From the sequence record PQ821640: DNA of 64,000 nt; one strand, given 5' to 3'. The notes below the pieces were generated by a model, which made no database searches, was not told the origin of the DNA, and saw nothing but the letters and a program-made list of their open reading frames with translations. The translations under genes were made by a program, and so were the position numbers. This DNA comes from Escherichia phage SD2. This document shows positions 16,492 to 63,802 of the stretch, in pieces. Each line of letters begins with the position of its first letter. Position 1 is the stretch's first letter.

Positions 16492-16514
16492 TCATAGTAA
16501 GAGAGATTATCAAA

Positions 16515-16730: not shown

Positions 16731-16737
16731 AACTACT

Positions 16738-16797: not shown

Positions 16798-16820
16798 TAA
16801 CAAAGAGAAGAGGAAACATC

Positions 16821-16991: not shown

Positions 16992-16998
16992 TATCCGC

Positions 16999-17027
16999 TT
17001 GACAGTAGCATCATTTATAAGTAAAGT
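16999..17027 (+). promoter_or_regulatory. sigma70-like promoter (TTGACA-17-TAAAGT)
   Basis: Read directly; no hairpin of the usual type. Confidence 0.45.
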
Positions 17028-17121
17028 AACAACAACGGCGGGAAAATTATTGGTTATATATTGCAAGCATGATCATAACTTTGGCAAAATATCATAACGT
17101 AGCGTAATCGAGAGGAAAAAC

Positions 17122-17259
17122 ATGAACGCATCACAGCAGATCGAAAAATTCAACCGCAGCAAGGCGCGTAAAAATTGGAACGAAGAGATCACCAAGAAAG
17201 GCGATAAGCGGAACAAAACAAAAAGAGATCGCAGCACAAAAAGACACTGGAACGAATAA
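17122..17259 (+). CDS. small basic protein (45 aa)
   Basis: MNASQQIEKFNRSKARKNWNEEITKKGDKRNKTKRDRSTKRHWNE; GAGAGGAAA SD; terminator immediately downstream. Confidence 0.5.
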   Translation: MNASQQIEKFNRSKARKNWNEEITKKGDKRNKTKRDRSTKRHWNE

Positions 17260-17262
17260 CAA

Positions 17263-17287
17263 AAAGGGCGCAATAAGCGCCCTTTTA
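17263..17287 (+). terminator. rho-independent terminator
   Basis: GGGCGC-AATAA-GCGCCC then TTTT. Confidence 0.75.
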
Positions 17288-17377
17288 GCTTATATAGAGG
17301 CTTGTTACCCATAGGCAATGGTAACGCCAGGGCAAGCCTATAAATCAACGTTAGACGGCTTTACAGGAGCTTTAAAA

Positions 17378-17560
17378 ATGAGATTAGAAGAAATAAGCAA
17401 GGCACTAGCCCAGGGGCAAAGGTTATGCGCCCGATATCGTGATCAATATGGCTTTATAACTAGCGGCGTGATCCTGGGGATTGAAGGCAATAAAATTTTT
17501 ATTGACACGTTGAAAAACGTTGTATATAGTGACAATATAATCTCAATAAAACATATATGA
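17378..17560 (+). CDS. hypothetical protein (60 aa)
   Basis: Start at ATG after CAGGAG SD; track ORF begins earlier at 17318. Confidence 0.5.
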   Translation: MRLEEISKALAQGQRLCARYRDQYGFITSGVILGIEGNKIFIDTLKNVVYSDNIISIKHI

Positions 17561-17568
17561 GGCAAGAA

Positions 17569-17970
17569 ATGAAAAAATTATTGATCGCTGGTTTAATCTC
17601 TTTTGGCATGGTTGGAACATCTAGCGCGGCGATATCCTCCACAGTAGCAGAATTAAGCGCCGTTGATGCAATGGAAAACGTCATGATCATTAATAACGCG
17701 ATCCCCGATGAAATCATGGAGGATTCACACATGATCGCTTATGGTGCTGTTACACAATTAACGGCAAAAATAGATAAATCTATTGTTAATGGCTTAAATG
17801 AAGATGTACCATGTGAAATTATTACCAGTGTGCTAACGACTCAAAATTTTACGCCGTGGCTAAAAAGTATTCAAAAGGTACACAGCACCGCCGCAGATCG
17901 TAGCAATGAAAAACTAGTGTCAGCACTTGCAACGTATACCCTAGCAAAATGTACCGAGATAAAAGGTTGA
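17569..17970 (+). CDS. hypothetical secreted/periplasmic protein
   Basis: MKKLLIAGLISFGMVGTSSAA signal-peptide-like N-terminus; GAGG SD. Confidence 0.65.
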   Translation: MKKLLIAGLISFGMVGTSSAAISSTVAELSAVDAMENVMIINNAIPDEIMEDSHMIAYGAVTQLTAKIDKSIVNGLNEDVPCEIITSVLTTQNFTPWLKSIQKVHSTAADRSNEKLVSALATYTLAKCTEIKG

Positions 17971-17993
17971 CAATATAGAAAGCACGTTATAAG
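17967..17993 (+). promoter_or_regulatory. sigma70-like promoter (TTGACA-15-TATAAG)
   Basis: Read directly. Confidence 0.45.
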
Positions 17994-18015
17994 ATACACA
18001 ACAAAGGAGAACCAC

Positions 18016-18318
18016 ATGAACGGCATAGCTAAAACGTTTTTTCTTTTTTCTGGTGTAAATGATCCATCAATAAAAGTCGATAGTGTAAAAGAAAACAATA
18101 CTATCACCGCTAAATTGTTTCAAGATGAAACAAATAACGTGCTAATCATTAATCTTAAAGAAATAACGAAAGGTTATTATACTATTGCTTACCATGCGAT
18201 CTATCATGCGGGTACTAGTGAGGAAGTGCAAACAAGCAACAACGAAAGCGCGGCGCTACCTGGTGATCTGGTGCTGGGCGTTATCAGTTTAATTGTCAAT
18301 GATTTTTTTAAGGAGTAA
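18016..18318 (+). CDS. hypothetical protein
   Basis: 100 aa; AAGGAG SD. Confidence 0.65.
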   Translation: MNGIAKTFFLFSGVNDPSIKVDSVKENNTITAKLFQDETNNVLIINLKEITKGYYTIAYHAIYHAGTSEEVQTSNNESAALPGDLVLGVISLIVNDFFKE

Positions 18319-18322
18319 AACC

Positions 18323-18418
18323 ATGCCCTATTTACATTTATTTTTCGGTATCTTATTGACAGGATCTTTTTTCTTCTGTATGCTTGTTTCTATTGTAAAC
18401 CACGTTTTAAGACATTAA
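18323..18418 (+). CDS. tiny hydrophobic peptide (31 aa)
   Basis: MPYLHLFFGILLTGSFFFCMLVSIVNHVLRH; AAGGAG SD. Confidence 0.3.
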   Translation: MPYLHLFFGILLTGSFFFCMLVSIVNHVLRH

Positions 18419-18427
18419 GGAAACAGC

Positions 18428-18547
18428 ATGAAAATTATTCCCGTACAGTATAGCGTAATAAATCCAGCATATGAGGAAGGAAGGAAAACAAGCATGGCTT
18501 TATGTTGTATTACTACTATAGCCATGTTATTATATATTGTGTTTTAA
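18428..18547 (+). CDS. tiny membrane peptide (39 aa)
   Basis: MKIIPVQYSVINPAYEEGRKTSMALCCITTIAMLLYIVF; AAGGAAA SD. Confidence 0.3.
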   Translation: MKIIPVQYSVINPAYEEGRKTSMALCCITTIAMLLYIVF

Positions 18548-18576
18548 TAGGTTTTATAGTTGTACGCTTTAAAGGC

Positions 18577-18604
18577 TTGACAATTTTTTGTTATGCTTTA
18601 AAAT
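18577..18604 (+). promoter_or_regulatory. sigma70-like promoter (TTGACA-16-TAAAAT)
   Basis: Read directly. Confidence 0.45.
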
Positions 18605-18647
18605 ATATCTTGAAAACGGCAAAGGCCGCAAACAAAAGGGTAAAATT

Positions 18648-18971
18648 ATGAAATCTGTGATCGGTGTTTATTTGGATAACTCTGATTTTTTCTATCATCG
18701 TGCGCGTTTCCTTGATGCGATTGAAATGATAGAATCAGGCTTTAAAGAGTATCGCCTTGCACATGATGACCTGGAAGCATTACAGGGCAATAGTGTTTTT
18801 ACATTGCAAGCTAAAGCACTATGTAAAAGCCGGATCGACATTGCGAGCAAAAAGATAGAACGCGGCATGTCCTGGTTACGCACCGCAGAAATTAACATGG
18901 GGCAATGGTACGGCGAAAACTTAGAAAATAAACTCACTTTTGTAAATGTAGAAAATCTTAAAGATTATTGA
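18648..18971 (+). CDS. hypothetical protein
   Basis: Start trimmed to ATG at 18648. Confidence 0.6.
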   Translation: MKSVIGVYLDNSDFFYHRARFLDAIEMIESGFKEYRLAHDDLEALQGNSVFTLQAKALCKSRIDIASKKIERGMSWLRTAEINMGQWYGENLENKLTFVNVENLKDY

Positions 18972-19033
18972 TTGACAGCACGCCTGATAAGGAGTATATT
19001 GTATCTCATAGAGCGGGGAAATGGTTTCCCCGC
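18972..19033 (+). promoter_or_regulatory. promoter (TTGACA-17-TATATT) plus hairpin GCGGGGAAA-TGG-TTTCCCCGC
   Basis: Read directly. Confidence 0.65.
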
Positions 19034-19053
19034 CTTAACAGAAGAGATAAGAT

Positions 19054-19338
19054 ATGAAAATCACAAAAGCACTTTTCAACTATGCAGCACGTCGCGGATT
19101 ATGCTTATCCGTTGAAAATTTAGGAAAAGAAGATTTTTTGTGCTTTTGGGAGCTTGAGAATGATAATGAGTGGATCTTCTCTTATTCTATCTGCAAAGAT
19201 CAAAATGGTTGCTTGTTAACCTGGCACGGTAATATCTATTTGCCGGAAGAAATAAAACAAGAATTACCAGGCACGATCATGACTGAGAAACAGCTTAAGG
19301 AAGTGATCAATTTTGTAAGGCAAAACATTAAAAAATAA
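19054..19338 (+). CDS. hypothetical early protein
   Basis: 94 aa. Confidence 0.7.
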   Translation: MKITKALFNYAARRGLCLSVENLGKEDFLCFWELENDNEWIFSYSICKDQNGCLLTWHGNIYLPEEIKQELPGTIMTEKQLKEVINFVRQNIKK

Positions 19339-19339
19339 T

Positions 19340-19400
19340 TTGACAGTAGGCAAACAACGTAGTAAAGTTTACCACATAGGGCGGGAAATGGTTTCCCGCC
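19340..19400 (+). promoter_or_regulatory. promoter (TTGACA-17-TAAAGT) plus hairpin GGCGGGAAA-TGG-TTTCCCGCC
   Basis: Read directly. Confidence 0.6.
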
Positions 19401-19418
19401 AGAATAGAGAGAACTAAA

Positions 19419-19523
19419 ATGATTATTCTTACCATGATGTGCGCGGCGGTTATTATTCCTTTGATAACGCTTATTGTTTCTGAGATCGATGATCTTCTCT
19501 TTGAAAGAAGTTTAAAAAAGTAA
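19419..19523 (+). CDS. tiny membrane peptide (34 aa)
   Basis: MIILTMMCAAVIIPLITLIVSEIDDLLFERSLKK. Confidence 0.4.
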   Translation: MIILTMMCAAVIIPLITLIVSEIDDLLFERSLKK

Positions 19524-19585
19524 TTGACAACGGCTAATAAGCTGATAATATGTATCACATAGGGCGGGGCAATAAGGCAACGCCC
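19524..19585 (+). promoter_or_regulatory. promoter (TTGACA-17-TAATAT) plus weaker hairpin GGGCG...CGCCC
   Basis: 5-bp stem with long loop. Confidence 0.5.
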
Positions 19586-19603
19586 ACTAATGAGGGTAGC
19601 ATC

Positions 19604-19708
19604 ATGTTAGAGAAAATTTTCACGGTTGTAATAGTGGGCCTGGCGTTATCGGTTGGAGTGATTGCAACTATGGCTAACATGATCCTATCTTCCCACGGTA
19701 TCGGCTAA
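19604..19708 (+). CDS. tiny membrane peptide (34 aa)
   Basis: MLEKIFTVVIVGLALSVGVIATMANMILSSHGIG. Confidence 0.4.
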   Translation: MLEKIFTVVIVGLALSVGVIATMANMILSSHGIG

Positions 19709-19722
19709 AAGAGAAACACAAC

Positions 19723-20109
19723 ATGAAAACAGAAATCATTATTGAAATCATCAACGGTTATAAAGAAGCCTTTATTTTTGCTGAATCAGCAAGGGATCAT
19801 GAAGGTAATTTTATTGATAACTTAGACGATTATGATTTTTCAGATCAAGCCCATCAACGGATCATTAATGACGTAGCGGCTTATTGTGATGCCAATGATG
19901 CTGCTATCTCTGAGGCAATGAGCGACGGCGCAACAGCAAACCAGATCGGGAATGATTTACATTTTACCCGTAACGGTCACGGCGTAGGTTTTTGGGATCG
20001 CCCTGAAATATACACTACTAACACCGCCAACCGCCTAACAAATGCAGCTAGATTAATGCCATCGGTGCATGCTTACATTGGTGAAGATAATTTGATTTAT
20101 ATTGAATAA
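19723..20109 (+). CDS. hypothetical protein
   Basis: 128 aa. Confidence 0.7.
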   Translation: MKTEIIIEIINGYKEAFIFAESARDHEGNFIDNLDDYDFSDQAHQRIINDVAAYCDANDAAISEAMSDGATANQIGNDLHFTRNGHGVGFWDRPEIYTTNTANRLTNAARLMPSVHAYIGEDNLIYIE

Positions 20110-20115
20110 AAAGTG

Positions 20116-20174
20116 TTGACACCGATCCCCAATATGGTATTATTTACCACGTAGGCGGGAAATGGTTTCCCGCC
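20116..20174 (+). promoter_or_regulatory. promoter (TTGACA-16-TATTAT) plus hairpin GGCGGGAAA-TGG-TTTCCCGCC
   Basis: Read directly. Confidence 0.65.
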
Positions 20175-20198
20175 AGGTAATCAAAAAAGGTAAACATT

Positions 20199-20588
20199 AT
20201 GCGCAACCTGATTTCTGTTTCTAACGTTGAAAAATTTCAATCCTTGCAGGGTATCATTAACAACGTAGCGCCTTTTTTAGTCAATGGCTTGATTGCAAAG
20301 ATGAAAAATAAACATCATGCGGCATGGTCTGCTTATTGCTTTGATAATGATGAAAAAGCGGCTGAAATGATGTTAAATATGCTTTTGGATAGTGTAGAAT
20401 CATCTTTACCGGAAAACATCGCAGAAGAGATCACCTATCGTTATAATATGGCGATCACTTACCAGGAGGTTGCGCAATTCAACATGATGGATGATGACGA
20501 ACAACAGGATCAAGAAATGTTCTGGGAGTATGCAGATCGTCAATCGGCTTTTGATGAAAAGTTAGCGATGTATTATAACGAATATTAA
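20199..20588 (+). CDS. hypothetical acidic protein
   Basis: 129 aa. Confidence 0.7.
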   Translation: MRNLISVSNVEKFQSLQGIINNVAPFLVNGLIAKMKNKHHAAWSAYCFDNDEKAAEMMLNMLLDSVESSLPENIAEEITYRYNMAITYQEVAQFNMMDDDEQQDQEMFWEYADRQSAFDEKLAMYYNEY

Positions 20589-20602
20589 TACACGGTAAAA
20601 GA

Positions 20603-20630
20603 AAGGGGCGCACTAAGCGCCCTTTTTTGT
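20603..20630 (+). terminator. rho-independent terminator
   Basis: GGGCGC-ACTAA-GCGCCC then TTTTTT. Confidence 0.75.
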
Positions 20631-20973
20631 ATTCTTTTTTCACGATGGAAACAACACGTAAAGAATAGGCGTAAAGGTGGCGTAAAACAGCCTAAAACCG
20701 ATTATAACCGCTTAAACAAGGTAGGGATGATTAATCACCTTACCAGGATGAAAAAGCCGTTATAAAGCTATCTAGAGCGTTTAAAGCACATAGGAAATAA
20801 TTTGCTTTTTATCTTGCCTTTTATTCTGCTTTTGATTATTATTATGGAACGGGCGGCACCTGGGAGCAGGGGAAGATAATCACCGGACGATCTTATTATA
20901 TATTGATAGCTTCCACCTATCAAACAACAAAACATTAAAGAAATAAACTATCAAATCTTTACAATCTCACCTA

Positions 20974-21033
20974 TTGACACCGGATCGCCCTTATACTAAG
21001 ATGTATCACGTAGGCGGGAAGTGGTTTCCCGCT
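20974..21033 (+). promoter_or_regulatory. promoter (TTGACA-17-TAAGAT) plus hairpin GCGGGAAG-TGG-TTTCCCGC
   Basis: Read directly. Confidence 0.55.
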
Positions 21034-21051
21034 CAATATAGGAATCATATC

Positions 21052-35123: not shown

Positions 35124-35936
35124 TTATTTAGTCAAATGATCTTCTATCATTTTTATGAAAGCAGGATTGCTAAAAGCATCTGCGGCCTTTTCTCGATAAA
35201 CAAAGACTCCTCTATCTTCGTAAAGAAGAGTTTCTTCGTAATTAATTCCTGGGTTAACAACAATCATTTTTGTACCCATATTAAGTGCAGGGAATAATTC
35301 CCAATTAAAATTGATAACTTGGTTTGAACATCCTACTACTACAACCAAATCTTGCATGGTCAAAGTATCAAACAAGTGAGCCATATCTGCATACAAAGGT
35401 GCAGCCTCACCAAAAAATACAACATTAGGCTTCACCCAGTTGTAATCATCTATGTTTATACTGTTGTAACCAATATCTACCAGTGTTTTGTAATCCCCAG
35501 GATGCATACGGTAAACTACTTCAGGAAGATATCCGTGCACGTGGATAACAGAATCCCTGTCTACACCTGCTCGCTCTAGTAGATCATCAACGTTTGTTGT
35601 CAAGTTTACTACTTGGTTAGGATATTCCTTAAACCACTTTGCTATTTGAATATGTGCAGCATTAGGTTGTACATCTTTAAGCTCAACACGTCTTTTGTTA
35701 TAAAATTCGTGTGTTTTGGCATACAAATCCATACCGTTTTCGTCTACACCACCAACCACTGGAAGATCTGGTGATGTTCTCACACGATAACCTGCTTGGA
35801 AAGCTCCAATATCGCAGATCTCTTCTAAATCCCATTCTTCCCATAAGGCACGACCACTATCTGTGTCTGTTCGGAATGTTCGAATCCCACTGTCTGCACT
35901 TAAACCAGCTCCACTAACAAAAATTACTCTTCGCAT
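35124..35936 (-). CDS. Sir2-family (sirtuin-like) NAD-binding protein, no Cys4 zinc module seen
   Basis: GAGLSADSGIRTFR, TTNVDDLLERAG, HVHG, PNVVFFGE, VVVGCS match sirtuin core motifs as I recall them. Confidence 0.75.
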   Translation of the reverse strand: MRRVIFVSGAGLSADSGIRTFRTDTDSGRALWEEWDLEEICDIGAFQAGYRVRTSPDLPVVGGVDENGMDLYAKTHEFYNKRRVELKDVQPNAAHIQIAKWFKEYPNQVVNLTTNVDDLLERAGVDRDSVIHVHGYLPEVVYRMHPGDYKTLVDIGYNSINIDDYNWVKPNVVFFGEAAPLYADMAHLFDTLTMQDLVVVVGCSNQVINFNWELFPALNMGTKMIVVNPGINYEETLLYEDRGVFVYREKAADAFSNPAFIKMIEDHLTK

Positions 35937-37268: not shown

Positions 37269-38258
37269 TCATTCCTCCATACACTTAAGAATATGTGCAA
37301 TGACAGGTATAGTCCAACCATTACCTAACATCTTATATGCTTGTGTGTTACTACTTACTTTAAAGTAATCATCTGGAACACCTTGTAAGCGGCAACACTC
37401 TTTAACCGTTAACTTTCTATAATGCACACCTTCACTCAATTTTTCAAAGGCATCCAGATATCTTCCAGGTGGAATGTAAGCTAATAGTACGTCTTTCGGC
37501 ACAGTCGTGAGGCAACGAGTTTTTTCACTGTCCTGAACTTCCAAGCAATGTACCAAACGATCAGTTTTAGATGTACTACGTTTGCCATTTTCATTAATTC
37601 TACGCCCATATATTGCCGCTGGATAAAAAACCAGTTGTCTGCGACTCTTTTCAAAATACTGTTCTATATTACCACCTTTGGCATAATTTGCATCTATGCA
37701 ATACGCCTTGTCCCTGTCTACAATACTATCATCTTCAATGATATCTTGCAACACTTCATTGGTAATATCCCAAGGCTTTATTTCCCAATTGCACCAGTAT
37801 AAACGTTGTCTATTCTGTGCCGTGAAATCTGCGGAGTTAATGAACACAGGATCAACACCTAAGTAACTTGTGATCACGTTTTCCCACTCCACCTTCATCT
37901 TAACGTTTTCAAGCATGAACTTAACATTAGGGTTAAACTTTTTAATATGTTCAAGGATTTCAACATATTCAAAGAACAGTTTAGATCGCGGATCTTGAAA
38001 GTTCAAACCCTTACCAGAAGAAGAGAAGCCTTGGCACGGACTACCACCTAGCAAAAGATCAATTTCTCCCCACGGGATATCCCATTCTCTCCATTTTGTA
38101 ACATCACCTAATTGAACAATATCTGGAAAATTGGCTTGGCTTTCAGCTATGGCAAATTTGTCCAACTCTGAAGCATAATACTTATCTACTTCAATACCTG
38201 CACTTTTTAGTGCAAGCATTCCTCCTGACATACCATCAAAAAGACTTAAAACTTTCAT
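37269..38258 (-). CDS. DNA (cytosine-5)-methyltransferase
   Basis: Motif I FDGMSGG, motif IV GGSPCQGFS, motif VI ENV. Confidence 0.9.
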   Translation of the reverse strand: MKVLSLFDGMSGGMLALKSAGIEVDKYYASELDKFAIAESQANFPDIVQLGDVTKWREWDIPWGEIDLLLGGSPCQGFSSSGKGLNFQDPRSKLFFEYVEILEHIKKFNPNVKFMLENVKMKVEWENVITSYLGVDPVFINSADFTAQNRQRLYWCNWEIKPWDITNEVLQDIIEDDSIVDRDKAYCIDANYAKGGNIEQYFEKSRRQLVFYPAAIYGRRINENGKRSTSKTDRLVHCLEVQDSEKTRCLTTVPKDVLLAYIPPGRYLDAFEKLSEGVHYRKLTVKECCRLQGVPDDYFKVSSNTQAYKMLGNGWTIPVIAHILKCMEE

Positions 38259-44433: not shown

Positions 44434-45087
44434 TTAATTATCAGAGGATACTTTATCAAGTTTTTCAGAGACTGTCAATACTTTTTCTTGTGATTCTTTC
44501 ATTTCTGCTAAAATACTTTCAGCTTCATCACTATCAGGATCACCAGTCAACAGCATACTAATTAGTTGCTCCTTGCTGAAGTTCAGAATATCTTCCGCTG
44601 TTAGCTCCAGTTGTTCTTCAATCTCTTCGACAAAAGTTTCACCGCCTGAAAAAGCATCTCGTAGTTTTGCAACTTCCATCGCTTCTTCTGGGGTTGCCCC
44701 AGCGTCTAAAGCTGCTAAAGCAAAATCTGCCCCACTACCAACAGCATAGTAATCTTCAGTTAAAGGATATGCTCGCGTTGGATTATTACCCTCGTGCATA
44801 TAAATTTTACCGTCTGGGTGAACAACCAATGCCACAAACTCTTCATCTTCTTTATCAGGATCTGACTGGATCACCAAGCCTGGGATTGTCTCTTGTGCTG
44901 CCTGGCACTGTAAGTTTTGTTCGAACCAAGAAAAGAAAGTCAGGATAGAAGACAGACGTCCTGCACCACCAACAAGGTAATCCCCAATTTTACGCACTTT
45001 CTTGAAATTTAAAGTGTCTACTCGATTACCTACTGTTACTTTACCGTCAGATAGAATTTTGTTATGTGTTGCAATAATTGTTGTCAT
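44434..45087 (-). CDS. HslV-like N-terminal-nucleophile peptidase with acidic C-terminal extension
   Basis: MTTIIATHNKILSDGKVTVGN, FxxVRKIGDYLVGGAG and AVGSGADFALAAL resemble E. coli HslV as I recall it; Thr2 as putative nucleophile. Confidence 0.7.
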   Translation of the reverse strand: MTTIIATHNKILSDGKVTVGNRVDTLNFKKVRKIGDYLVGGAGRLSSILTFFSWFEQNLQCQAAQETIPGLVIQSDPDKEDEEFVALVVHPDGKIYMHEGNNPTRAYPLTEDYYAVGSGADFALAALDAGATPEEAMEVAKLRDAFSGGETFVEEIEEQLELTAEDILNFSKEQLISMLLTGDPDSDEAESILAEMKESQEKVLTVSEKLDKVSSDN

Positions 45088-47066: not shown

Positions 47067-47333
47067 TTACTCCGCAATCTGAGCCATGAATTCACGTAGT
47101 TCAGAAAAACCTCCTACGTGGGTTAGCTGTTCACCATCTTCCACAAAAATCTGAGGAAATGTGCGTGGTAGAACACCTGTTTTCTCTAAAACCAGATTCT
47201 GAATCTGATCTAAAGAATAGTCTTCATCTAAGGTAAGATATTTAAAATCCTGTTCACGCTGTTCTAGTAGAATCTTAGCGTTAGTGCAGAAAGGACAATT
47301 TGGTTTACCGTAGATAATAAAATTCATTTTCAC
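47067..47333 (-). CDS. glutaredoxin-like protein
   Basis: CPFC active-site motif in IIYGKPNCPFCTNAK. Confidence 0.85.
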   Translation of the reverse strand: MKMNFIIYGKPNCPFCTNAKILLEQREQDFKYLTLDEDYSLDQIQNLVLEKTGVLPRTFPQIFVEDGEQLTHVGGFSELREFMAQIAE

Positions 47334-48160
47334 TCCTTGTTTAAAAGTATAGTTAAAGTTCTTACAATACCGCTATCAACACTTCGCGGATTTAAAGTAG
47401 GATCTGTTTTTAAATAAGATGTTGCTGGTCTGACTGCTTTGGAATTATAGGTTGAAGCAGATACAGGATTAACTGTAACAGATAAATCTATAACAAGAAA
47501 TATCTTTCGTGCAAAATCATACCAAGAAATATAATCTGCACCTGCATAGTGTACAATTTTACTATTTACACCATCTTTTACAAGTTTAAAAATTGTTTCT
47601 GCAAGATCAGGTGCATAAGTAGGACATGACAAATGATCACATACTACATTAAATTCTTTTTGACCACCGTTGTAGCGTTCCAACATAGTTTTCAAAAAGT
47701 TATGTCCAAATTCACTATAAACAGAAGCTGTTCTGATAATAAGTGCTGTAGGACAAACTGTTTGTACTAAAGTTTCACCTAATTGTTTACTGTAACCGTA
47801 GGTGTTCAAGGGGTTTGTTTTACTATCTTCTGTGCCAGCAACATGCCCATCAAAAACATAGTCTGTTGAAATATGTACAAACTGTATCAGTAAATCATTA
47901 CATGCTTTGGCAATGTTTGTTGCACCGTATGCATTAACATTTATACAGGTGTTAACATCTTCTTCAGCTTTATCTACTGCCGTGTAAGCCGCACAATTCA
48001 CAACAACATCAGGCACATGCTGTACAAGACTATTCATAACATCTTTAAAGTTGGTAATGTCTACATCACTTGCTTCAATCAAAATAACATCTTCGGGCGC
48101 AACTTTTGCCAAAGACTGTCCTAATTGACCTTTTGAACCAAAGATTAAAAATTTTGTCAA
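47330..48160 (-). CDS. rmlD: dTDP-4-dehydrorhamnose reductase
   Basis: N-terminal Rossmann FGSKGQLG; last gene of an rmlB-A-C-D array; overlaps rmlC by 4 nt. Confidence 0.8.
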   Translation of the reverse strand: MTKFLIFGSKGQLGQSLAKVAPEDVILIEASDVDITNFKDVMNSLVQHVPDVVVNCAAYTAVDKAEEDVNTCINVNAYGATNIAKACNDLLIQFVHISTDYVFDGHVAGTEDSKTNPLNTYGYSKQLGETLVQTVCPTALIIRTASVYSEFGHNFLKTMLERYNGGQKEFNVVCDHLSCPTYAPDLAETIFKLVKDGVNSKIVHYAGADYISWYDFARKIFLVIDLSVTVNPVSASTYNSKAVRPATSYLKTDPTLNPRSVDSGIVRTLTILLNKE

Positions 48161-48711
48161 AATATGATCTCCTTTAGTGTTTTGGCTTGCTGATCTTTTT
48201 GTGACAAGATAGGTTTAAAATTAATATCATTAAAGATTAAATCAAAACCCCAATCAATATTGATATCTGGATCATTCCACGCAAGACTACACTCTGAAGT
48301 CGGATCGTAATATTCTGTACATTTATATTCAAAATCAGCAATGTCACTAATCACAACAAAGCCATGAGCGAAACCAGGAGGAATCCAAAATTGTGTTTTA
48401 TTCTTTTCAGATAAGAGAACACCTACCCATTCTCCAAATGTTGGACTACCAACCCTAATATCTACAGCAACATCATAAACTTCACCACGAACACAACGTA
48501 CTAACTTCCCTTGTGGGTTTTTCTTTTGAAAATGAAGCCCACGTAGAACTCCTCGAATAGAACGTGAGTGGTTATCCTGGACAAAGTTTTGTTTACCTAT
48601 GTATTGATCATATAAAGCCTGATTAAAACTTTCTAAGAAAAAGCCACGTTCATCTCCGTAAACGTCAGGTTGAATGATCAACAAATCTTCGATTTTTGTT
48701 GCTTGAATCAT
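48157..48711 (-). CDS. rmlC: dTDP-4-dehydrorhamnose 3,5-epimerase
   Basis: Cupin-type RmlC sequence; operon context. Confidence 0.85.
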   Translation of the reverse strand: MIQATKIEDLLIIQPDVYGDERGFFLESFNQALYDQYIGKQNFVQDNHSRSIRGVLRGLHFQKKNPQGKLVRCVRGEVYDVAVDIRVGSPTFGEWVGVLLSEKNKTQFWIPPGFAHGFVVISDIADFEYKCTEYYDPTSECSLAWNDPDINIDWGFDLIFNDINFKPILSQKDQQAKTLKEIIF

Positions 48712-48723
48712 TTAATTCCCCCT

Positions 48724-49593
48724 TTATTTTAATTTAAGTAAATACTTACCGTAGTCTGTTTTACTTAAAACCTCTCCAGAATTTTTTACAGAATCTAAAG
48801 TAATCCATTCATTTTTAAAAGCAATCTCTTCCAGGCATGCAACCTTCATACCTTGTTGCTTTTCTATTGCATGAACAAATTGAGATGCCTCCATAAGACT
48901 TTCATGTGTTCCTGTATCCAGCCAAGTGAAACCTCTTCCTAGTTTACAGACACGTAAAGTTTTTTCTTTCCAGTACATCTCATTTATATCTGTAATCTCT
49001 AACTCCCCTCTAGCAGAAGGTTTAACGCTCTTAGCTTTCTGTATAACAGAATTATCGTAAAAGTACAAGCCTGTGATTGCGTAGTTGCTTTTTGGTGCTT
49101 TTGGTTTTTCTTCAATACTCACCACTGTACCTTCAGAATCAAACTCAACAACACCAAATCTTTCAGGATCATTTACGTGATACCCAAAAATATTAGCTCC
49201 ACCATTCTTTTCAATATGTTCTTTAGCAGAATCTAAAATGCTACCAAAACTCTGACCAAAGAATAAATTATCACCTAGCACAAGTGCTACAGAATCTTCA
49301 CCAATAAAGTTCTCACCAATAATAAAGGCTTCTGCTAAACCTTTTGGGCTGTTCTGTACTGCATACTGTAGGGAAATACCAAAAGAAGAACCATCACCTA
49401 AAAGATTTACAAAATTAATTTGATCTTCTGGTGTTGTAATTATTAGTATTTCCCTAATTCCAGAAAGCATTAGGACAGAGAGTGGATAATAAATCATAGG
49501 CTTATCGTAAATTGGTAATAGTTGTTTACTAAACCCTTTAGTAACTGGGTAAAGTCTTGTTCCGCTACCACCTGCTAAGATAATACCTTTCAT
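48724..49593 (-). CDS. rmlA: glucose-1-phosphate thymidylyltransferase
   Basis: [18 protein letters not shown] signature N-terminus. Confidence 0.9.
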
Positions 49594-49601
49594 ACTCCTC
49601 C

Positions 49602-50591
49602 TTAAACTTTATTTTCCCACCACTCTTTGTTATCTACATACCAATCAATGGTTGAATAAAGTTTTTCTTCAAATGTGCCTTTAGCTTTCCACCCTAATTC
49701 CTTTTCAATCTTATAAGGATTCACTTCATATCTTAGATCATGCCCAGGTCTATCTGTAACCATCTCAATTAGGCTACAAGCATCTGTTTCAGATGGATAC
49801 ACCGCATCCATATAATCACAAATCATATAGATTACATCAATATTAGTTCTAGGGTTTCTGCTCCCAATATTATATGTTTCTCCAGATTTGCCTTTAGTTA
49901 CTACTAGGTGTAATGCTTCTGCGTGATCGTCAACGTATAACCAGTCTCTTACTTGAAGACCATTGCCATAAACAGGGATTGGTTTATTCATCAAGATATT
50001 TGTTATCGTTTTAGGTATTAGTTTTTCTGGATGATGATATGCTCCAAAATTATTTGAACAATTTGTTATAACTGTCGGAATACCATAAGTACGATGCCAC
50101 GCTCTTACCAAATGATCGCTTGCTGCCTTAGATGCAGCATATGGACTACTTGGCTTATAAGGATTCTGTTCTGTAAACGGATAATCCCCTTCTTCCAGAT
50201 CACCATACACTTCATCTGTTGAAATATGATGGAACATTTTAAGATTTGATTTATCTCCCATTAAACGAACAGCTTCTAGAAGATTAAATGTCCCAACAAT
50301 ATTTGAATTTATAAAAACACTCGGTGATGCTATTGAATTATCTACGTGACTTTCTGCTGCAAGATGCATTATATAATCTGGATTAACATCTGCCACAATC
50401 TTAGCAGTTAACTGCGCATTTGTCAAGTCAACACGACAAAACTTTACATTGGGTGTTTCTGATAAATTTCTAGGGTCTGAAGCGTAACCCCATTTATCTA
50501 TAACGTAAATATCATTTTTAGTATTTTTAGCCAGGAAACGAACTACCGCACTTCCAATAAAGCCTAAACCACCTGTTACTAAGTATTTCAT
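49602..50591 (-). CDS. rmlB: dTDP-glucose 4,6-dehydratase
   Basis: GGLGFIGS Rossmann motif and YAASKAASD catalytic YxxxK. Confidence 0.9.
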
Positions 50592-50785
50592 TTAGTCTCC
50601 TTCCAATTATTCCCTTCAGTAAAAATAATACCTTCATAAAACAACCATCTGGAACCTTTTTCAACAGGAACAGGAAGCTCTTCTTCAGTAAAGTTATAAA
50701 CCTCTCTAGCATCTTCTAAAAGTGATGCAAATGTTTTTGGACTTACTGTTACGCGAGGAGCATTGATCAGTTGATCTAGCATCAT
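50588..50785 (-). CDS. hypothetical protein
   Basis: Track ORF 50588..50878 trimmed to internal ATG with AAGGAGG SD. Confidence 0.5.
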   Translation of the reverse strand: MMLDQLINAPRVTVSPKTFASLLEDAREVYNFTEEELPVPVEKGSRWLFYEGIIFTEGNNWKETK

Positions 50786-50798
50786 TCTACTATCCTCC

Positions 50799-51125
50799 TT
50801 ACCAAACGTGTTGAGAAATAATAGTTTCCGTTTCAATGTTATATTTTTCAAGAAGTTGTGCATAGGCTTCTTTTGCATTCTTATTTAGTTGCTCAAGATC
50901 TACAGCTACACTTCCTTCGCCACCTTCTAAATAAATCCCATATATGCAATAAGATGCATCAGCGTCATAGAAAGGTGAGATACGGCTTAAATCAAGACCT
51001 TCTTGTAAGAACCAATTAAAATCTCCATCAAATTCTTCTTCAATTCTAGGATCTTCTCCTACAGCCTCTTCCCATTTATTAAAAGGCGCACCCTGTAATA
51101 TACGCCATGCAATATCAATTCCCAT
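50799..51125 (-). CDS. hypothetical acidic protein
   Basis: 108 aa. Confidence 0.6.
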   Translation of the reverse strand: MGIDIAWRILQGAPFNKWEEAVGEDPRIEEEFDGDFNWFLQEGLDLSRISPFYDADASYCIYGIYLEGGEGSVAVDLEQLNKNAKEAYAQLLEKYNIETETIISQHVW

Positions 51126-53104: not shown

Positions 53105-55366
53105 TTACATCTTACAAGCCTCACAACCAGATTCTTCATCTTCTTGAGCGAGTGAGGTTGCCGATTTTGTTCTACTATTTAGATAGTACAAAGATTTACC
53201 ACCAAGTTTTGCAAACTGAAGGATATATTGCATTTCTGATTTAATGGATAAACGACCACCTTCCATCTTAGAATAGTCAATCCACTTATCACATGATGCA
53301 CCTTGATCTAAGAATTTAGTCAATAATCCATATGCTTCAGCCATATCTTTATCTGGCGTATCCCAAGCCGATTGGTAAATATCTTTTAGTTTATCATAGT
53401 CTGGCACAATAAATAGGACATTACCTTTTTGGCTTTGTTTATAAACTATAGTATCACGTACAGGATACACAGAGTTAGTCGTATTACTTACGAGACTACT
53501 GGACTCATTCGGAGCAATAGCTGCTAATACACTATTTCGGATACCGCCTTGTGCAATGATATCTTGTCGTAAACCTTCCCAATCCATTTTAAGTTTAAAA
53601 TTGCCAATATCGTCTACAGCTTTAGCGTAGGTATCAATAGGCAACCATCCTTCAGGCCATTTGGTTTTATGCATCCATTCTGCATTACCCTTCTCTTTTG
53701 CCAAACGAAGAGAAGCTCTTGCTAACCAGTAATAATGCCTTTCTGCTAATTCGTGAATTAGTTTTTTGCCGTAAGGATCTGAATAAGTAACAAAATTACT
53801 TGCCAGATAATGTGCAAGGTTTGTAATACCTACACCGATAGACCTACGTGCTTTAGCAGTGATTTCGTTATGTTTAAACGGATACTGCATTGTTTCAATA
53901 ACATTATCAATAGTTAGAACTGTATAATATGCAACATCTTCATATTCTTCTGGTGTAACACGACCAGCTACAATAGAAGACAGGAAGCATAATGCCAATT
54001 CTTGATCTTCTGTATTCTCACCTGTGAAAAGATCAGTTATATTGTGAAATGCTTTCGTAGGTAAGAAAATTTCTTGGCACAAGTTTGACTGATAAATAAC
54101 ATCCTTAAACGGAGTATGCCTATTAGCATTATCCGCAAAGAACATATAAATACGTCCTGTCTCTGCTCTTTGTGTAATAATTTCTGCCAGAAGATCTCGT
54201 GCTTTTACAAACTTCTTCTTAATACGTTTGCGACTAACTTTTTCATATACTTCTTCAAACTCTTCCTCGCTTTTATAAAGCGCCTCATAGAGTTCTGGTG
54301 CTTCGTCATAACTAACTAGCATCCAATCTTTACCTTTTGCTGCACGGCGCAGGAAAGCATTGTTTACTACGATAGAGTAATCAAGTTTATCTACTCGTTT
54401 TTCACTAACAGTAGTTGGGTTTTTCAAACGTACCAGATCTTCAAAATCAGGTTCTAATATTGTAAACGTTACTGTTGCACTTCCACCACGACTTGCTTGT
54501 TTTGATGCTCCAACACTTGTCTCCATCCATTTCAGATATGGTAAAAGACCACCGTGAACAATACGGTTGTTCTTAACACCTTGTCCTGTAGCACGGGTTT
54601 GGAGGTTAACACCAATACCTGCATTATTCAATGTATATTCATGCGCAAGATAGTTAGCAATTGCTAAAGATTCTGCTGTATCATCTGCTCTAAACAGACA
54701 ACAAGAAGCACTACCTTTAATCTTAGTACGCAAAGTTGTTAAATAAGGCGATGGTAAATTAATCTTAAGATCACTTACGTAGGTATATAGACGTTTAATG
54801 TCTTCTACTCTGCGATCTTTTGGTTGAATTTCCATTACCTTCATTGCTACACCAATGAATAAAAACTGTGGTGATTCAAAAACAACATCATTGATCGCAT
54901 CTTTCACAAGATACTTATCAACCATCTGGCGCAGTACGGAATAACCATAAGTTAGGTTTTTATCGTGATTGACAATTTTACCAATCTCAATAATTTCTTC
55001 TTCTGTATAATCCATTTTTCCCCAATAGCCTTTACTTACAGACATATTGTAGAAATCCAGGAGGGAGGGGATATTGTGATATCCCCCATGAGCCTGTTTA
55101 TAAATCATACCAAGAAGTAACCGACCTGCCATATCACTATATGCCTGATCTTTCTTATCAATACATGCTGCTATCATAGCTTTATGTAAATCACGAGTAG
55201 GCACACCGTCGTAACAACGTTTAACAGCTTCAAGTTCAATTTCAGACCAATTTAATTTACCAGCAGCAAACTCTGACCATTTACGAAGTTTTTCTGGATT
55301 AAATTCTTCTTTCTTGCCGTTTGTTTTTGTTACATAACGGATAGATTTGCTTAGATACTGAGTCAC
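53105..55366 (-). CDS. nrdA: ribonucleotide reductase class Ia alpha subunit
   Basis: 753 aa aligning along its length with my recollection of E. coli NrdA; C-terminal CEAC pair; apparent GTG start with AGGAG SD. Confidence 0.95.
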   Translation of the reverse strand: MTQYLSKSIRYVTKTNGKKEEFNPEKLRKWSEFAAGKLNWSEIELEAVKRCYDGVPTRDLHKAMIAACIDKKDQAYSDMAGRLLLGMIYKQAHGGYHNIPSLLDFYNMSVSKGYWGKMDYTEEEIIEIGKIVNHDKNLTYGYSVLRQMVDKYLVKDAINDVVFESPQFLFIGVAMKVMEIQPKDRRVEDIKRLYTYVSDLKINLPSPYLTTLRTKIKGSASCCLFRADDTAESLAIANYLAHEYTLNNAGIGVNLQTRATGQGVKNNRIVHGGLLPYLKWMETSVGASKQASRGGSATVTFTILEPDFEDLVRLKNPTTVSEKRVDKLDYSIVVNNAFLRRAAKGKDWMLVSYDEAPELYEALYKSEEEFEEVYEKVSRKRIKKKFVKARDLLAEIITQRAETGRIYMFFADNANRHTPFKDVIYQSNLCQEIFLPTKAFHNITDLFTGENTEDQELALCFLSSIVAGRVTPEEYEDVAYYTVLTIDNVIETMQYPFKHNEITAKARRSIGVGITNLAHYLASNFVTYSDPYGKKLIHELAERHYYWLARASLRLAKEKGNAEWMHKTKWPEGWLPIDTYAKAVDDIGNFKLKMDWEGLRQDIIAQGGIRNSVLAAIAPNESSSLVSNTTNSVYPVRDTIVYKQSQKGNVLFIVPDYDKLKDIYQSAWDTPDKDMAEAYGLLTKFLDQGASCDKWIDYSKMEGGRLSIKSEMQYILQFAKLGGKSLYYLNSRTKSATSLAQEDEESGCEACKM

Positions 55367-56146: not shown

Positions 56147-57118
56147 TCACCATTTTGTATGGTTCGTCAAAAGTTGACGATGTTGAATCCAACCACAGAA
56201 GTTTCCACTCCACAAACGATGTTTACGATCCATATGTGTAATACCTTCTTCCCAAGAGGAAGGGAACGGAGGAATATTAATACCACCTTTCTGTTGTTTT
56301 AATCCTGACAAATCCATTTCTTTCATTGGCGTTGCCTGGTGTTCAAACGGAGATGCATGTACCTTTTGTCCAGACAGCAAACGAGAATAGATATCCAATG
56401 CTTTATCTTTAGTATCATTCAACTTACGATAACTTACCTGAGCGCAACAAGAAGCTGAAATAGCTTTTGCTTCATCTTCTGTCAACATTTTCTCGTTGGA
56501 GAAGGTTTCACCCAAGAAATAACGGATCATACCAGTTTCTGGATCTCGATCACGATTAACGTAAGGTGTATGCCATTCCCCTGGGAAAAGAAGATATGGT
56601 TCAGAAGATTCATACAGTTTTTTAATTTCTTTAGCAAGAGCCTCAATAGTAGGATCTGCATCAGCATCTACGCGCAACCACAAGAAGTTTTCTAGCTCTG
56701 TAGTGGTTACTACAGTCTTCATACGCTGAAATGGTTCTAGTAGGCGGTTTGCAACCTGTTTATGATAACCAGCAAGGGCAAACTCTTCTGCAAAACGTGC
56801 AGCACTTAGCGCAGCCAAGTCCCACCATTCTTTTGCAGTGTAACCTGCATCAATCAGGGCATCGTGATCTGTGCCTTTATCTTGCATACCTGGTTGGTTA
56901 GCACCAAAACGATAAGGACGTGCTGGAGATTGCCGTACCATTTCAATCAGGGTTTTAACAGGGATAGCTCGACTTGATGCTGCATTACGAGAAAACAAAC
57001 GATGCGTCATCAATTCAGAGTGAATGATTCGAGGATATTCAAGTTCAAAGGTAACAATATCCTTACCTTCGGATGTTTGAGAGTGTGCAATAATTTTTGC
57101 TGAAATAGAATTTGTCAT
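56147..57118 (-). CDS. ThyX-family (flavin-dependent thymidylate synthase-like) protein with atypical THR motif
   Basis: VTFELEYPRIIHSELMTHRLFSRNAASSRA aligns with the ThyX FTF...RHRxxSxNxxSxR region, but the first Arg of RHR is Thr; 323 aa, longer than typical ThyX. Confidence 0.6.
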   Translation of the reverse strand: MTNSISAKIIAHSQTSEGKDIVTFELEYPRIIHSELMTHRLFSRNAASSRAIPVKTLIEMVRQSPARPYRFGANQPGMQDKGTDHDALIDAGYTAKEWWDLAALSAARFAEEFALAGYHKQVANRLLEPFQRMKTVVTTTELENFLWLRVDADADPTIEALAKEIKKLYESSEPYLLFPGEWHTPYVNRDRDPETGMIRYFLGETFSNEKMLTEDEAKAISASCCAQVSYRKLNDTKDKALDIYSRLLSGQKVHASPFEHQATPMKEMDLSGLKQQKGGINIPPFPSSWEEGITHMDRKHRLWSGNFCGWIQHRQLLTNHTKW

Positions 57119-57127: not shown

Positions 57128-57718
57128 TTAAGGTAGTAAAATACTTTCAATTTCTTCCCACTGATTATTTAAACCAGTGATAATTACATTAGGAAGTTTC
57201 TTTAACTCTTCCAAATATGGATCTTCGTAAATAGTGTTGAAATATATTTTCAACGTTTCATCTGGAAACAGGACAAGATTTTCAGCCCTATCGTCAATAG
57301 TTACATCGCAAGGTAATAAGTATTTTTCTTTTGTTGCGAAAAAACCATTACCAGATGTTCTACTAAAATCCACTTTATCTAAAGATCGTGTTACGTGTCT
57401 ATATTTAGAACTAAGGTGTCCACCCTTAGTGTGACTCGCTATAGATATATTAGCTCCATTTGCAATTATACGATGAACAACATCTGTACTATTAGGTACT
57501 ACTCCCATAGTATCATATAGATGTTGGTTATCCCAAAAAGAGTAAGGATCTACACCAAATTGCTTTTTAAAATCAGGGAAATATTTCGTAATATCATAGT
57601 GCACAGTTTTATGTGTCTTATCAAATTTGATATTAGATCTACTTACCGCATTTAACCAATTTAACCATTCTATATCCGCTGGAGCTATTACTAAATCCCA
57701 ATCACATACTAGACGCAT
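57128..57718 (-). CDS. putative HAD-type 5'(3')-deoxyribonucleotidase
   Basis: Track ORF trimmed to ATG at 57718 (AGGAG SD); DWD near the N-terminus (VCDWDLVIA) resembles HAD motif I; tentative. Confidence 0.45.
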   Translation of the reverse strand: MRLVCDWDLVIAPADIEWLNWLNAVSRSNIKFDKTHKTVHYDITKYFPDFKKQFGVDPYSFWDNQHLYDTMGVVPNSTDVVHRIIANGANISIASHTKGGHLSSKYRHVTRSLDKVDFSRTSGNGFFATKEKYLLPCDVTIDDRAENLVLFPDETLKIYFNTIYEDPYLEELKKLPNVIITGLNNQWEEIESILLP

Positions 57719-58265
57719 TATTTCTCCTGTTATAACATTTTCTACACATTGTTTCGTAAATGTCTTCTCCTCCAATAACAATCTGTTCTTTAGAGTCGAT
57801 AAGTCTAGCATTGAAAATAGCTTTTCTTCCACATTTACAAATGCTTTTCAATTCTGTAATTGAATCTGCTATGGCTAATAACCGTTCAGAACCTTCAAAC
57901 AATTCTGTAGCAAAATCTGTTTTAAGTCCATAGCAGAATACAGGAATATCGTAATTATCTACCACATCTCCAAGAATGTCAACCATATCTTTAGTTAGGA
58001 ATTGTGATTCATCCACAAATACTGCATCTACTGGATTTTCTTTAAGTTGTGTATAAATTTCCAGCATATCTTCTTTTGTTTTAACTGGTTTTGCTTCCTC
58101 TTTAATACCTATCCTGGAAGCAATAGCACCACCAGATCTGGTATCTAAAGCTGAAGTTAAAAGAAGAACTTTCATATTTCTTTCTTTATAGTTCCAAGCT
58201 GTTTGTAGAAGATGTGTGCTTTTACCACTGTTCATCGGACTATATCGGAAATAAAGTTTAGCCAT
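57702..58265 (-). CDS. tdk: thymidine kinase
   Basis: MAKLYFRYSPMNSGKSTHLLQTAWNYKERNM closely matches the E. coli Tdk N-terminus as I recall it; C-terminal CxxC pairs. Confidence 0.9.
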   Translation of the reverse strand: MAKLYFRYSPMNSGKSTHLLQTAWNYKERNMKVLLLTSALDTRSGGAIASRIGIKEEAKPVKTKEDMLEIYTQLKENPVDAVFVDESQFLTKDMVDILGDVVDNYDIPVFCYGLKTDFATELFEGSERLLAIADSITELKSICKCGRKAIFNARLIDSKEQIVIGGEDIYETMCRKCYNRRNNASSM

Positions 58266-63079: not shown

Positions 63080-63802
63080 TTAAGCAATGATTGCTGCGAT
63101 ATTAGGTTTAACAAAGGTAGATGGCTTCATAATTTTACCTTTGTCATCAAAGAATACGTATACCTTTTGAACTTCGTTATATACAGCATGTACTCCAGTA
63201 TAAGAACCTTCTGCACGATCTTTGCTTCGCATCTCGATAGCATCACACTCTTTTTCAAGAGCTTCAACAATATCCTTAGTTTCCCAAATAGCCAGGAGTT
63301 GCTTCTTGGTAGGATACTTGGACTCATTGCTATTCAACACTTCACGCATAACCTTCTTCTCGTTATAAACAGAACGCACCAAAGTATCTCGTGCCATACG
63401 TGTAAGTGTAAGAGACATTAGGGCAAATTGCAAGTCATTTTCTACCATTTTATCAAATTCAATGATAACATCGTAAATGTTTTCTGCCAGAACATCTCCT
63501 GTCGGCATTTCCAGAGCTTTATCAACACCTTCTTTACCAAAGAACATAAACGCCAGGTAGGATGCTACCACAAAAATATCTGCTGCTGCATCAAGTAATT
63601 CAACGTGATCATTTTCCTGTGCTGCTGCTTGGAACTCTTTTAGTTCTTCTCGTACAAAAGAAAGTTGAGCTTCAAACATCTCTTGAGTAAACTCTGGAGT
63701 TACGCCACCACGTGCCTTAGCATTCCAAGCAACAATTTGATCGGCAGCTTTGATAAAGAAGCTATTGTCCACTTTTACTTGTTTGAAAAAATTCTCGATC
63801 AT
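63080..63802 (-). CDS. putative MazG-like nucleotide pyrophosphohydrolase
   Basis: EELKEFQAAAQENDHVELLDAAADIFVV resembles the MazG EExxE...D motif; tentative. Confidence 0.45.
   Translation of the reverse strand: MIENFFKQVKVDNSFFIKAADQIVAWNAKARGGVTPEFTQEMFEAQLSFVREELKEFQAAAQENDHVELLDAAADIFVVASYLAFMFFGKEGVDKALEMPTGDVLAENIYDVIIEFDKMVENDLQFALMSLTLTRMARDTLVRSVYNEKKVMREVLNSNESKYPTKKQLLAIWETKDIVEALEKECDAIEMRSKDRAEGSYTGVHAVYNEVQKVYVFFDDKGKIMKPSTFVKPNIAAIIA

Follow-up and report, generated by a model that had tools for sequence, protein, structure and literature searches.

Four contiguous genes on the minus strand of Escherichia phage SD2 (sequence record PQ821640), at positions 47330-50591 of the 64,000-nucleotide stretch that was analyzed and that we refer to as the window, encode the complete pathway to dTDP-L-rhamnose (dTDP, deoxythymidine diphosphate), and the operon that they form is real, intact and, as judged from its sequence, very probably functional. 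Our preferred explanation, to which we attach a rough probability of 0.4, is that the operon is an accessory supply line for the phage's own glycosyltransferases, which would act on an acceptor other than DNA.

The phage is a phi92-like myovirus of the subfamily Stephanstirmvirinae: the window belongs to a Justusliebigvirus, a phi92-like coliphage, and is 99.3% identical to Escherichia phage PD114, and the region is 98-99% identical in 55 Justusliebigvirus records, phi92 among them, in most of which the four rml genes already carry these exact functions as annotation. The operon was noted in phi92/phAPEC8-type phages by Olsen et al. 2020, who termed its place in the DNA-metabolism region "peculiar" and proposed glycosylation of hydroxymethylated nucleotides, and the rml operon of the Stephanstirmvirinae was also discussed with the BASEL collection (Maffei et al. 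2021). The observation itself is therefore not new, both the operon and the idea of DNA glycosylation having been published in 2020 and the operon being an annotated feature of more than 100 GenBank genomes. The window adds a further isolate to the genus, and nothing material sets its operon apart from the published one. No experimental follow-up on rhamnose in phi92-type phages was found in the searchable literature, and the remaining interest lies in the use to which such a sugar nucleotide is put by a coliphage that is strictly lytic.

The rml operon of phage SD2

The four genes, listed in their order from rmlB to rmlD (aa, amino acids), are as follows:

49602..50591, minus strand: rmlB, dTDP-glucose 4,6-dehydratase, 329 aa (TIGR01181, 1G1A, motifs)
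48724..49593, minus strand: rmlA, glucose-1-phosphate thymidylyltransferase, 289 aa (TIGR01207, 1IIM, motifs)
48157..48711, minus strand: rmlC, dTDP-4-dehydrorhamnose 3,5-epimerase, 184 aa (TIGR01221, 1DZR, motifs)
47330..48160, minus strand: rmlD, dTDP-4-dehydrorhamnose reductase, 276 aa, TTG start (TIGR01214, 3SC6, motifs)

Each gene was identified by a score over the cut-off of a curated NCBIfam equivalog model, and Pfam was concordant for all four. The scores were 444 bits for RmlB against TIGR01181 (cut-off 365), 471 bits for RmlA against TIGR01207 (cut-off 361), in a match spanning residues 2-288 of 289, 260 bits for RmlC against TIGR01221 (cut-off 156) and, with a modest margin, 254 bits for RmlD against TIGR01214 (cut-off 224). 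Alignments to crystallised enzymes covered most or all of the length of each protein. The matches were to three Salmonella enterica enzymes, namely RmlB 1G1A (residues 1-327, E 4e-117), RmlA 1IIM (residues 2-288, E 2e-124) and RmlC 1DZR (E 6e-64), and, in the case of RmlD, to Bacillus anthracis RmlD 3SC6 (E 5e-44) and to 1VL0, both of which are Firmicute RmlDs (E ~1e-44). The catalytic motifs were likewise in place. RmlB has the Rossmann GxxGxxG together with the T-D-E and YxxxK catalytic residues (the latter as YAASK), and RmlA has GGSGTRL at residue 8, LGDN at 106, EKP at 162 and LDTGT at 225, all identical in the alignment with 1IIM. The motifs RGLH, KLVR, HGF and YDPTSE are present in RmlC, with RGLH, KLVR and the Tyr-containing YDPTSE conserved relative to 1DZR, and RmlD has GSKGQLG, STDYVF and YGYSK and keeps the Thr and Tyr-x-x-x-Lys catalytic residues of the short-chain dehydrogenases. 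An earlier note on this DNA had read the four minus-strand genes as RmlB-A-C-D, and these results bear it out: its coordinates were exact, and equivalog scores, structure matches and catalytic motifs were all concordant. Its claim that the phage makes an activated deoxy-sugar is well supported by the same gene identities.

The modest margin of RmlD is relevant to the identity of the end product, which would be a stereoisomer, e.g. dTDP-6-deoxy-L-talose, if a divergent "RmlD" reduced C4 with the opposite stereochemistry. The phage protein is only 30 bits over the equivalog cut-off, its best cellular relatives (among genomes of 185,579 species) are at most 44% identical to it, and it differs by 46% between two phage genera. 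Against this, its best solved-structure matches are all true RmlDs, its score is above the curated threshold and the Thr and Tyr-x-x-x-Lys residues are conserved, and we regard a stereoisomer as highly improbable.

All four steps are encoded contiguously on one strand, and every rml gene is preceded by a Shine-Dalgarno sequence (GGAGA at rmlB and AAGGAG at the TTG start of rmlD). Proceeding from a small upstream open reading frame (ORF) through rmlB, rmlA, rmlC and rmlD to a glutaredoxin gene, the junctions measure -4, +8, +12, -4 and -4 nt. In view of a Shine-Dalgarno sequence on each gene and junctions of only -4 to +12 nt, the genes constitute a translationally coupled operon. The bacterial rmlBDAC/rfbBDAC operons, as in Salmonella enterica and the O-antigen clusters of E. 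coli, specify these four enzymes as well, with matching catalytic motifs, and their enterobacterial order is B-D-A-C, as opposed to B-A-C-D in the phage. Unlike the enterobacterial rfb operons, the phage operon has an RmlD that resembles Firmicute or other non-enterobacterial enzymes, and unlike O-antigen clusters it lies amid nucleotide-metabolism genes and has no O-antigen glycosyltransferase, flippase or polymerase next to it.

Glycosyltransferases outside the window

The earlier note had found no obvious glycosyltransferase, a statement that holds for the window, in which there were no homologs of the glycosyltransferases of related phages, but not for the genome, as close relatives carry four of them ~21 kb before the start of the window. 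In the complete genome of the relative PaulScherrer (MZ501100), the four genes are adjacent at 47.6-50.8 kb, beside primase/helicase and DNA polymerase genes, and 53 Justusliebigvirus records, PD114 and phi92 (gp163-166) among them, share the cluster at 98-100% conservation. Two of the four are GT-B paralogs (including bas60_0048) that belong to phrog_7162 and Pfam Glyco_trans_1_2. The GT-B model (pLDDT 94.7) had among its fold matches the GT4 enzymes GlgM, PglA, BshA and MshA, and its best mutual TM-scores were with GtfC and Gtf3, which carry out O-glycan elongation on serine-rich proteins. The GT-A enzyme (bas60_0050) has invariant F-D-D-D and Y-G-x-E-D motifs and a model (pLDDT 88.6) with generic GT-A fold matches, and the fourth protein, the 187-aa bas60_0051, is a glycosyltransferase by PHROG family name only. 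There were no transmembrane segments in the four glycosyltransferases (the top 19-residue Kyte-Doolittle average was 1.21) and no matches in PDB sequence searches with bas60_0050, bas60_0048 and bas60_0051. The fold searches gave generic GT-A and GT4 classes only and did not point to an acceptor.

The distribution of the rml genes matches that of the glycosyltransferases. Translated searches with RmlD, GT-A and GT-B returned the same counts of taxon names (106 Escherichia, five mislabelled "Campylobacter", three Justusliebigvirus and three Phapecoctavirus), plus 8-10 Klebsiella-phage relatives each, which suggests that the rml genes and the glycosyltransferases co-occur across the subfamily and its Klebsiella/Citrobacter relatives. 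The GT-A and GT-B genes themselves remain neighbors in IMG/VR contigs at identities as low as 33%, and in a more distant relative (L098) a nucleoside diphosphate-sugar dehydratase/epimerase is inserted within the glycosyltransferase cluster, with a vWA-TerF-like gene also alongside.

Several further observations concern these records and the surroundings of the cluster. The "Campylobacter phages" A150, A145, C3, A110a and B15 (MG065639, MG065645, MG065656, MG065689, MG065650) are ~98.6% identical to Justusliebigvirus or, in the case of B15, to Phapecoctavirus, and are probably mis-assigned hosts or contaminating coliphages. In "Justusliebigvirus alia" (OZ035770/OZ035799, ~46.2-48.4 kb) the glycosyltransferase cluster is 72% covered at the nucleotide level and has one GT-B place, at 72% amino-acid identity, versus two in its relatives; this reduced cluster indicates that the glycosyltransferase set varies within the genus. 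Just past the glycosyltransferases of PaulScherrer (MZ501100), at 51.5-62.1 kb, are genes for TerD, a vWA-TerF-like protein, TelA and TerC, after which come macrodomain, phosphoribosyltransferase and HAD genes. The record lists the four Ter-type genes only as hypothetical, and such a "tellurite-resistance" set is odd for a strictly lytic coliphage.

DNA as a candidate acceptor

Rhamnose could be moved to a hydroxymethylated base in the phage DNA, as glucose is in T4, and so evade restriction, as was proposed by Olsen et al. 2020 and entertained in the earlier note. The positions of the genes are compatible with such a role, the operon being among nucleotide-metabolism genes and the glycosyltransferase cluster beside replication genes, and the window also has a Dcm-like C5-methyltransferase, a divergent ThyX-like protein and a MazG-like protein. 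In addition, the GT-A enzyme scored 23.3 bits against the TET-associated glycosyltransferase family TAGT (PF20691), which is below the gathering threshold of 27.5, and matched the PHROG family of the T-even beta-glucosyl-HMC glucosyltransferase (phrog_842) at E 5e-5 in the DxD region only. Both matches to DNA-glycosyltransferase families fall short of the threshold and are confined to that region, and the T4 alpha- and beta-glucosyltransferases (AGT and BGT) do not appear among the 50 best fold matches of the GT-B model.

The behavior of the phages towards host defenses argues against this acceptor. In the BASEL study these phages were described as "exceptionally susceptible" to restriction-modification systems (Maffei et al. 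2021), and phiPATM and phiPau showed a sensitivity to BREX of seven orders of magnitude and fell outside the group of BrxU-sensitive phages, BrxU being a type IV enzyme that cuts DNA with 5-methylcytosine, 5-hydroxymethylcytosine (5hmC) or glucosyl-5hmC (Picton et al. 2021). The rml operon and the glycosyltransferase cluster are both present in the sequenced genomes of PATM and Paula, and Paula could be linked to these defense studies. The phage, moreover, relies on several DNA methyltransferases, and its sole thymidylate-synthase-like gene encodes the divergent ThyX-like protein. Neither a ThyA-type hydroxymethylase nor a TET/JBP protein was found in the ~50 proteins scanned from the window and the relative's genome, a scan that did not exhaustively cover small proteins and remote homologs. 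Given the restriction sensitivity, the BREX-sensitive but not BrxU-sensitive phenotypes, and a scan that turned up no hydroxymethylase or TET/JBP, we disfavor DNA as the acceptor and consider it most improbable. A remote but conceivable version is one in which sparse DNA rhamnosylation, restricted to certain motifs, would escape the restriction, BREX and BrxU assays.

The comparison with DNA glucosylation in T-even phages is instructive here. The two systems are alike in that they occur in lytic myoviruses with glycosyltransferases among early or replication genes. T-even phages, however, use a deoxycytidine monophosphate hydroxymethylase and alpha/beta-glucosyltransferases with uridine diphosphate (UDP)-glucose, a sugar nucleotide that they do not make themselves, whereas here the phage has its own pathway and no hydroxymethylase was found. 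Unlike T-even DNA, that of phi92-type phages behaves in the literature as unmodified towards restriction-modification, BREX and BrxU.

Origin and natural loss of the pathway

A megablast of the operon against 5,426 complete E. coli genomes gave no near-identical copy, and the codon composition of the operon is phage-like. Recent capture from the host was ruled out, based on the lack of an E. coli megablast match, the identity of at most 44% between RmlD and its cellular homologs, and the phage-like codons. Since there is no close cellular RmlD and the codon composition is that of a phage, the operon is, on sequence grounds, a long-standing phage gene set. Its homologs in Phapecoctavirus are 71% (RmlA) and 54% (RmlD) identical.

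The pathway is dispensable in nature, and its parts are lost unequally. RmlC and RmlD form a conserved core, and RmlA and RmlB are often missing: RmlD matched 106 Escherichia-phage records as compared to 87 for RmlA, Klebsiella-phage relatives are mostly without RmlA, and in Phapecoctavirus ESCO37 just RmlC and RmlD are present. The Justusliebigvirus "Eryne" carries a 545-bp deletion that joins RmlB(1-310) to RmlA(159-289), with the loss of RmlA alone. In "cardinal" (PQ567651), a 2.3-kb deletion has removed RmlA and RmlC and left an in-frame fusion of the RmlB N-terminus with the RmlD C-terminus, a 302-aa RmlB/RmlD chimera (53305-54213) whose junction lies inside the homologous short-chain dehydrogenase catalytic region, and the deletion looks like recombination between the paralogous rmlB and rmlD. 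All three phages are viable and retain the glycosyltransferase cluster (in ESCO37, the GT-B gene was checked).

This degradation is one of the points in favor of the view that there is no dedicated acceptor, and that the operon is instead a pool regulator (a sink for deoxythymidine triphosphate (dTTP) or sugar nucleotides, or a feedback inhibitor of host RmlA/RffH), a feed for an unrecognized small-molecule pathway, or a decaying passenger. The location of the operon within the nucleotide-metabolism block and its coupling to the glutaredoxin gene are in keeping with such roles, as are the 70 kb between it and the glycosyltransferases and the fact that the latter are adjoined by the Ter-type "nucleoside-like metabolite" cluster. 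Conversely, more than 50 Justusliebigvirus genomes have all four genes unbroken at 98-99% identity and with their catalytic residues conserved, RmlC and RmlD have been kept across genera that diverged to 54% identity, and a phage that copies a 150-kb genome is unlikely to squander dTTP. The retention of intact rml genes implies purifying selection for the end product, and we consider it unlikely that the operon has no dedicated acceptor.

A proposed supply line for the phage glycosyltransferases

We return to the reading that the operon supplies the phage glycosyltransferases with donor sugar. Under this model, glucose-1-phosphate and dTTP would be converted to dTDP-glucose, which would yield in turn dTDP-4-keto-6-deoxyglucose, dTDP-4-keto-rhamnose and dTDP-L-rhamnose. 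The operon would thereby secure the donor in any enterobacterial host for the four soluble phage glycosyltransferases, and these would glycosylate an acceptor other than DNA, phage (virion) proteins being the likeliest candidate and a host envelope glycan a less likely one. All Enterobacterales make dTDP-4-keto-6-deoxyglucose via RffH and RffG for the enterobacterial common antigen (ECA), whereas rmlC and rmlD are present only in some enterobacterial O-serotypes. Because the former enzymes are universal and the latter limited by serotype, RmlC and RmlD would be what the phage must bring, and as such the indispensable additions, with RmlA and RmlB only raising flux; a host that produces rhamnose itself would make the operon as a whole superfluous. 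E. coli K-12 has rfbBDAC genes of its own, which would mask an effect of the operon. We infer that the four enzymes are active, that a phage glycosyltransferase uses their dTDP-rhamnose and that the acceptor is of the kind proposed.

Two indirect lines of evidence point to virion proteins. The first is that, among phages, the GT-A enzyme has its only remote relatives in the glycosyltransferases of Cluster F mycobacteriophages: weak but significant homologs (~26% identity, E ~1e-7, Pacc40 gp98) were found in the right-end glycosyltransferase cassette of Pacc40 and ~60 other Cluster F phages. Capsid or virion glycosylation is reported in this cluster (Che8 and Rita; Freeman et al. 2023). The second is the placement of the GT-A gene in six distant viral contigs whose terminase, portal and capsid families differ: it sits 1.5-5 kb upstream of the head genes and on their strand. 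In five of the six (L099, L103, L105, L107 and L108) it has a GT-B homolog beside it, and in the other (L110) the neighbor is a different, family-2-like glycosyltransferase.

The likeness to the Cluster F phages Che8 and Rita consists in phage-encoded glycosyltransferase cassettes. Unlike in the coliphage, however, no sugar-nucleotide synthesis genes accompany the cassettes of Che8 and Pacc40, and whereas virion glycans are reported in Cluster F, there are none for phi92-type phages in the literature searched. A direct link to the virion glycosylation of Che8 was also sought and failed for the Che8 proteins themselves; only their positional equivalent in Pacc40 matches.

A number of points weigh against the supply-line reading. 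The hhalign probabilities of Che8 gp108-110 against the coliphage profiles were <1% for all three. The equal counts of taxon names suggest, without proving, that the searches with RmlD, GT-A and GT-B matched identical records, and a matching distribution within one subfamily could be mere shared ancestry. The rml operon and the glycosyltransferase cluster are ~70 kb apart, and the distant contigs with the glycosyltransferase module lacked rml genes within 10 kb of it. Some isolates with a broken pathway are viable, so any benefit of the pathway must be conditional. The literature searched holds no experiment that places rhamnose on any phage or host molecule, and the use of this sugar by the four glycosyltransferases is presumed. 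Finally, the slot between tail and terminase genes is the classical position of host-conversion (moron) genes and would fit modification of the host surface equally well.

That last point leads to a serious rival, in which the host envelope is remodeled, either by the addition of rhamnose units to the core of lipopolysaccharide (LPS), to ECA or to another glycan, or by the diversion of dTDP-4-keto-6-deoxyglucose from ECA by RmlC and RmlD. The Fuc4NAc branch of ECA has RmlA- and RmlB-type steps in common with the rhamnose route, which counts in its favor. So does receptor use, as the primary receptor of these phages is ECA and the terminal receptor the LPS outer-core glucose (BASEL, Maffei et al. 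2021). An envelope change would stop superinfection, or stop progeny from adsorbing to debris. Moreover, undecaprenyl-linked glycans are frequent targets of GT4-like and GT-A enzymes, the fold matches include PglA, TarP, TarM and RmlT, and the glycosyltransferase module of the distant contigs occupies the usual accessory-gene slot from tail genes to terminase. On the other hand, strictly lytic phages leave only a brief time for surface turnover, no flippase, polymerase or ligase is annotated in the relative's genome, and, if depletion of ECA were the aim, the phage's own RmlA and RmlB would be counter-productive. Membrane-embedded Gtr-type components are also lacking, as are transmembrane segments in the glycosyltransferases. 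Serotype conversion of the Gtr type, which temperate phages achieve with the membrane proteins GtrA, GtrB and GtrC, is accordingly not matched here, where no segment reaches transmembrane level. No integrase is annotated in the relative's genome, in which there is one "putative site-specific recombinase", and the organization is that of a lytic myovirus. On balance, we judge envelope remodeling to be unlikely, although it must be taken seriously.

Neighboring genes and other features of the window

Two genes that flank the operon lie outside the pathway:

47067..47333, minus strand: glutaredoxin gene, with a 4-nt overlap with the rmlD stop (Pfam Glutaredoxin, 45 bits)
50588..50878, minus strand: small upstream ORF, with a stop that shares 4 nt with the rmlB start (no Pfam match)

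The counterpart of the small ORF in PaulScherrer is annotated as a shorter hypothetical protein. The earlier note had also placed the operon between glutaredoxin and lysozyme genes on one side and nrdB, nrdA, ThyX-like and thymidine kinase genes on the other, and these neighbors proved correct: the glutaredoxin, ThyX-like protein and thymidine kinase were recognized by Pfam, and the endolysin, NrdB and NrdA by annotation in PaulScherrer. A scan for promoter and terminator consensus sequences around the operon gave 39 promoter-like sites as compared to 41 expected, which is the chance level, and the boundaries of the transcription unit therefore cannot be drawn. No tRNA genes or Rfam families were found in the window.

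The "thymidylate synthase" at 56147-57118 (minus strand) is a divergent ThyX-like protein of 323 aa, which passed Pfam Thy1 with 37 bits but scored 35.8 where the ThyX equivalog model has its cut-off at 87.9. The long minus-strand block that contains the operon also has accessory genes for a sirtuin-family protein (35124-35936), a Dcm-like C5 cytosine methyltransferase (37269-38258), an HslV/proteasome-like subunit (44434-45087), an NT5C-like 5'-nucleotidase slightly under the Pfam threshold (57128-57832) and a MazG-like PRA-PH pyrophosphohydrolase (63080-63802).

On the plus strand, seven copies of a repeated cassette stand ahead of small early ORFs at 13500-21050, each with the hairpin GGCGGGAAATGGTTTCCCGCC. 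A sigma-70-like promoter (TTGACA ... TATAAT-like) is directly upstream in at least three of the seven copies, and in two promoter-bearing copies a ribosome-binding site and start codon follow directly downstream of the hairpin. We take these cassettes to resemble the mobile "promoter-early stem-loop" cassettes of T4-type phages. An intergenic, AT-rich unit of ~75 nt is present in three tandem copies at 12159-12379 (plus strand) and could be a regulatory or origin-like region.

Implications for phi92-type phages

In its fullest form, the supply-line reading would give phi92-type phages a self-contained system, in which their own dTDP-L-rhamnose and four glycosyltransferases place rhamnose glycans on virion proteins. 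We hold this to be possible but somewhat doubtful. The nearest likeness is to the giant viruses (chloroviruses and mimivirus), in which the synthesis of activated rhamnose and the glycosyltransferases are also both virus-encoded. They differ in that giant viruses use a eukaryote-type UDP-L-rhamnose route and their capsid or fiber glycosylation has been demonstrated, whereas here the route is the bacterial dTDP one and virion proteins are a candidate acceptor. If true, this system would give bacterial viruses a parallel to the autonomous glycosylation of giant viruses and might be the first such case in a phage with a Gram-negative host.

The natural pathway-null isolates cardinal, Eryne and ESCO37 are ready-made controls that make the question of the acceptor experimentally tractable. 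Phi92-type phages are in use in therapy cocktails and in model collections (BASEL and Durham). If the sugar is on their virions, antibody recognition, stability and host interaction would be affected, and virion glycosylation in phages would extend beyond the actinobacteriophages.

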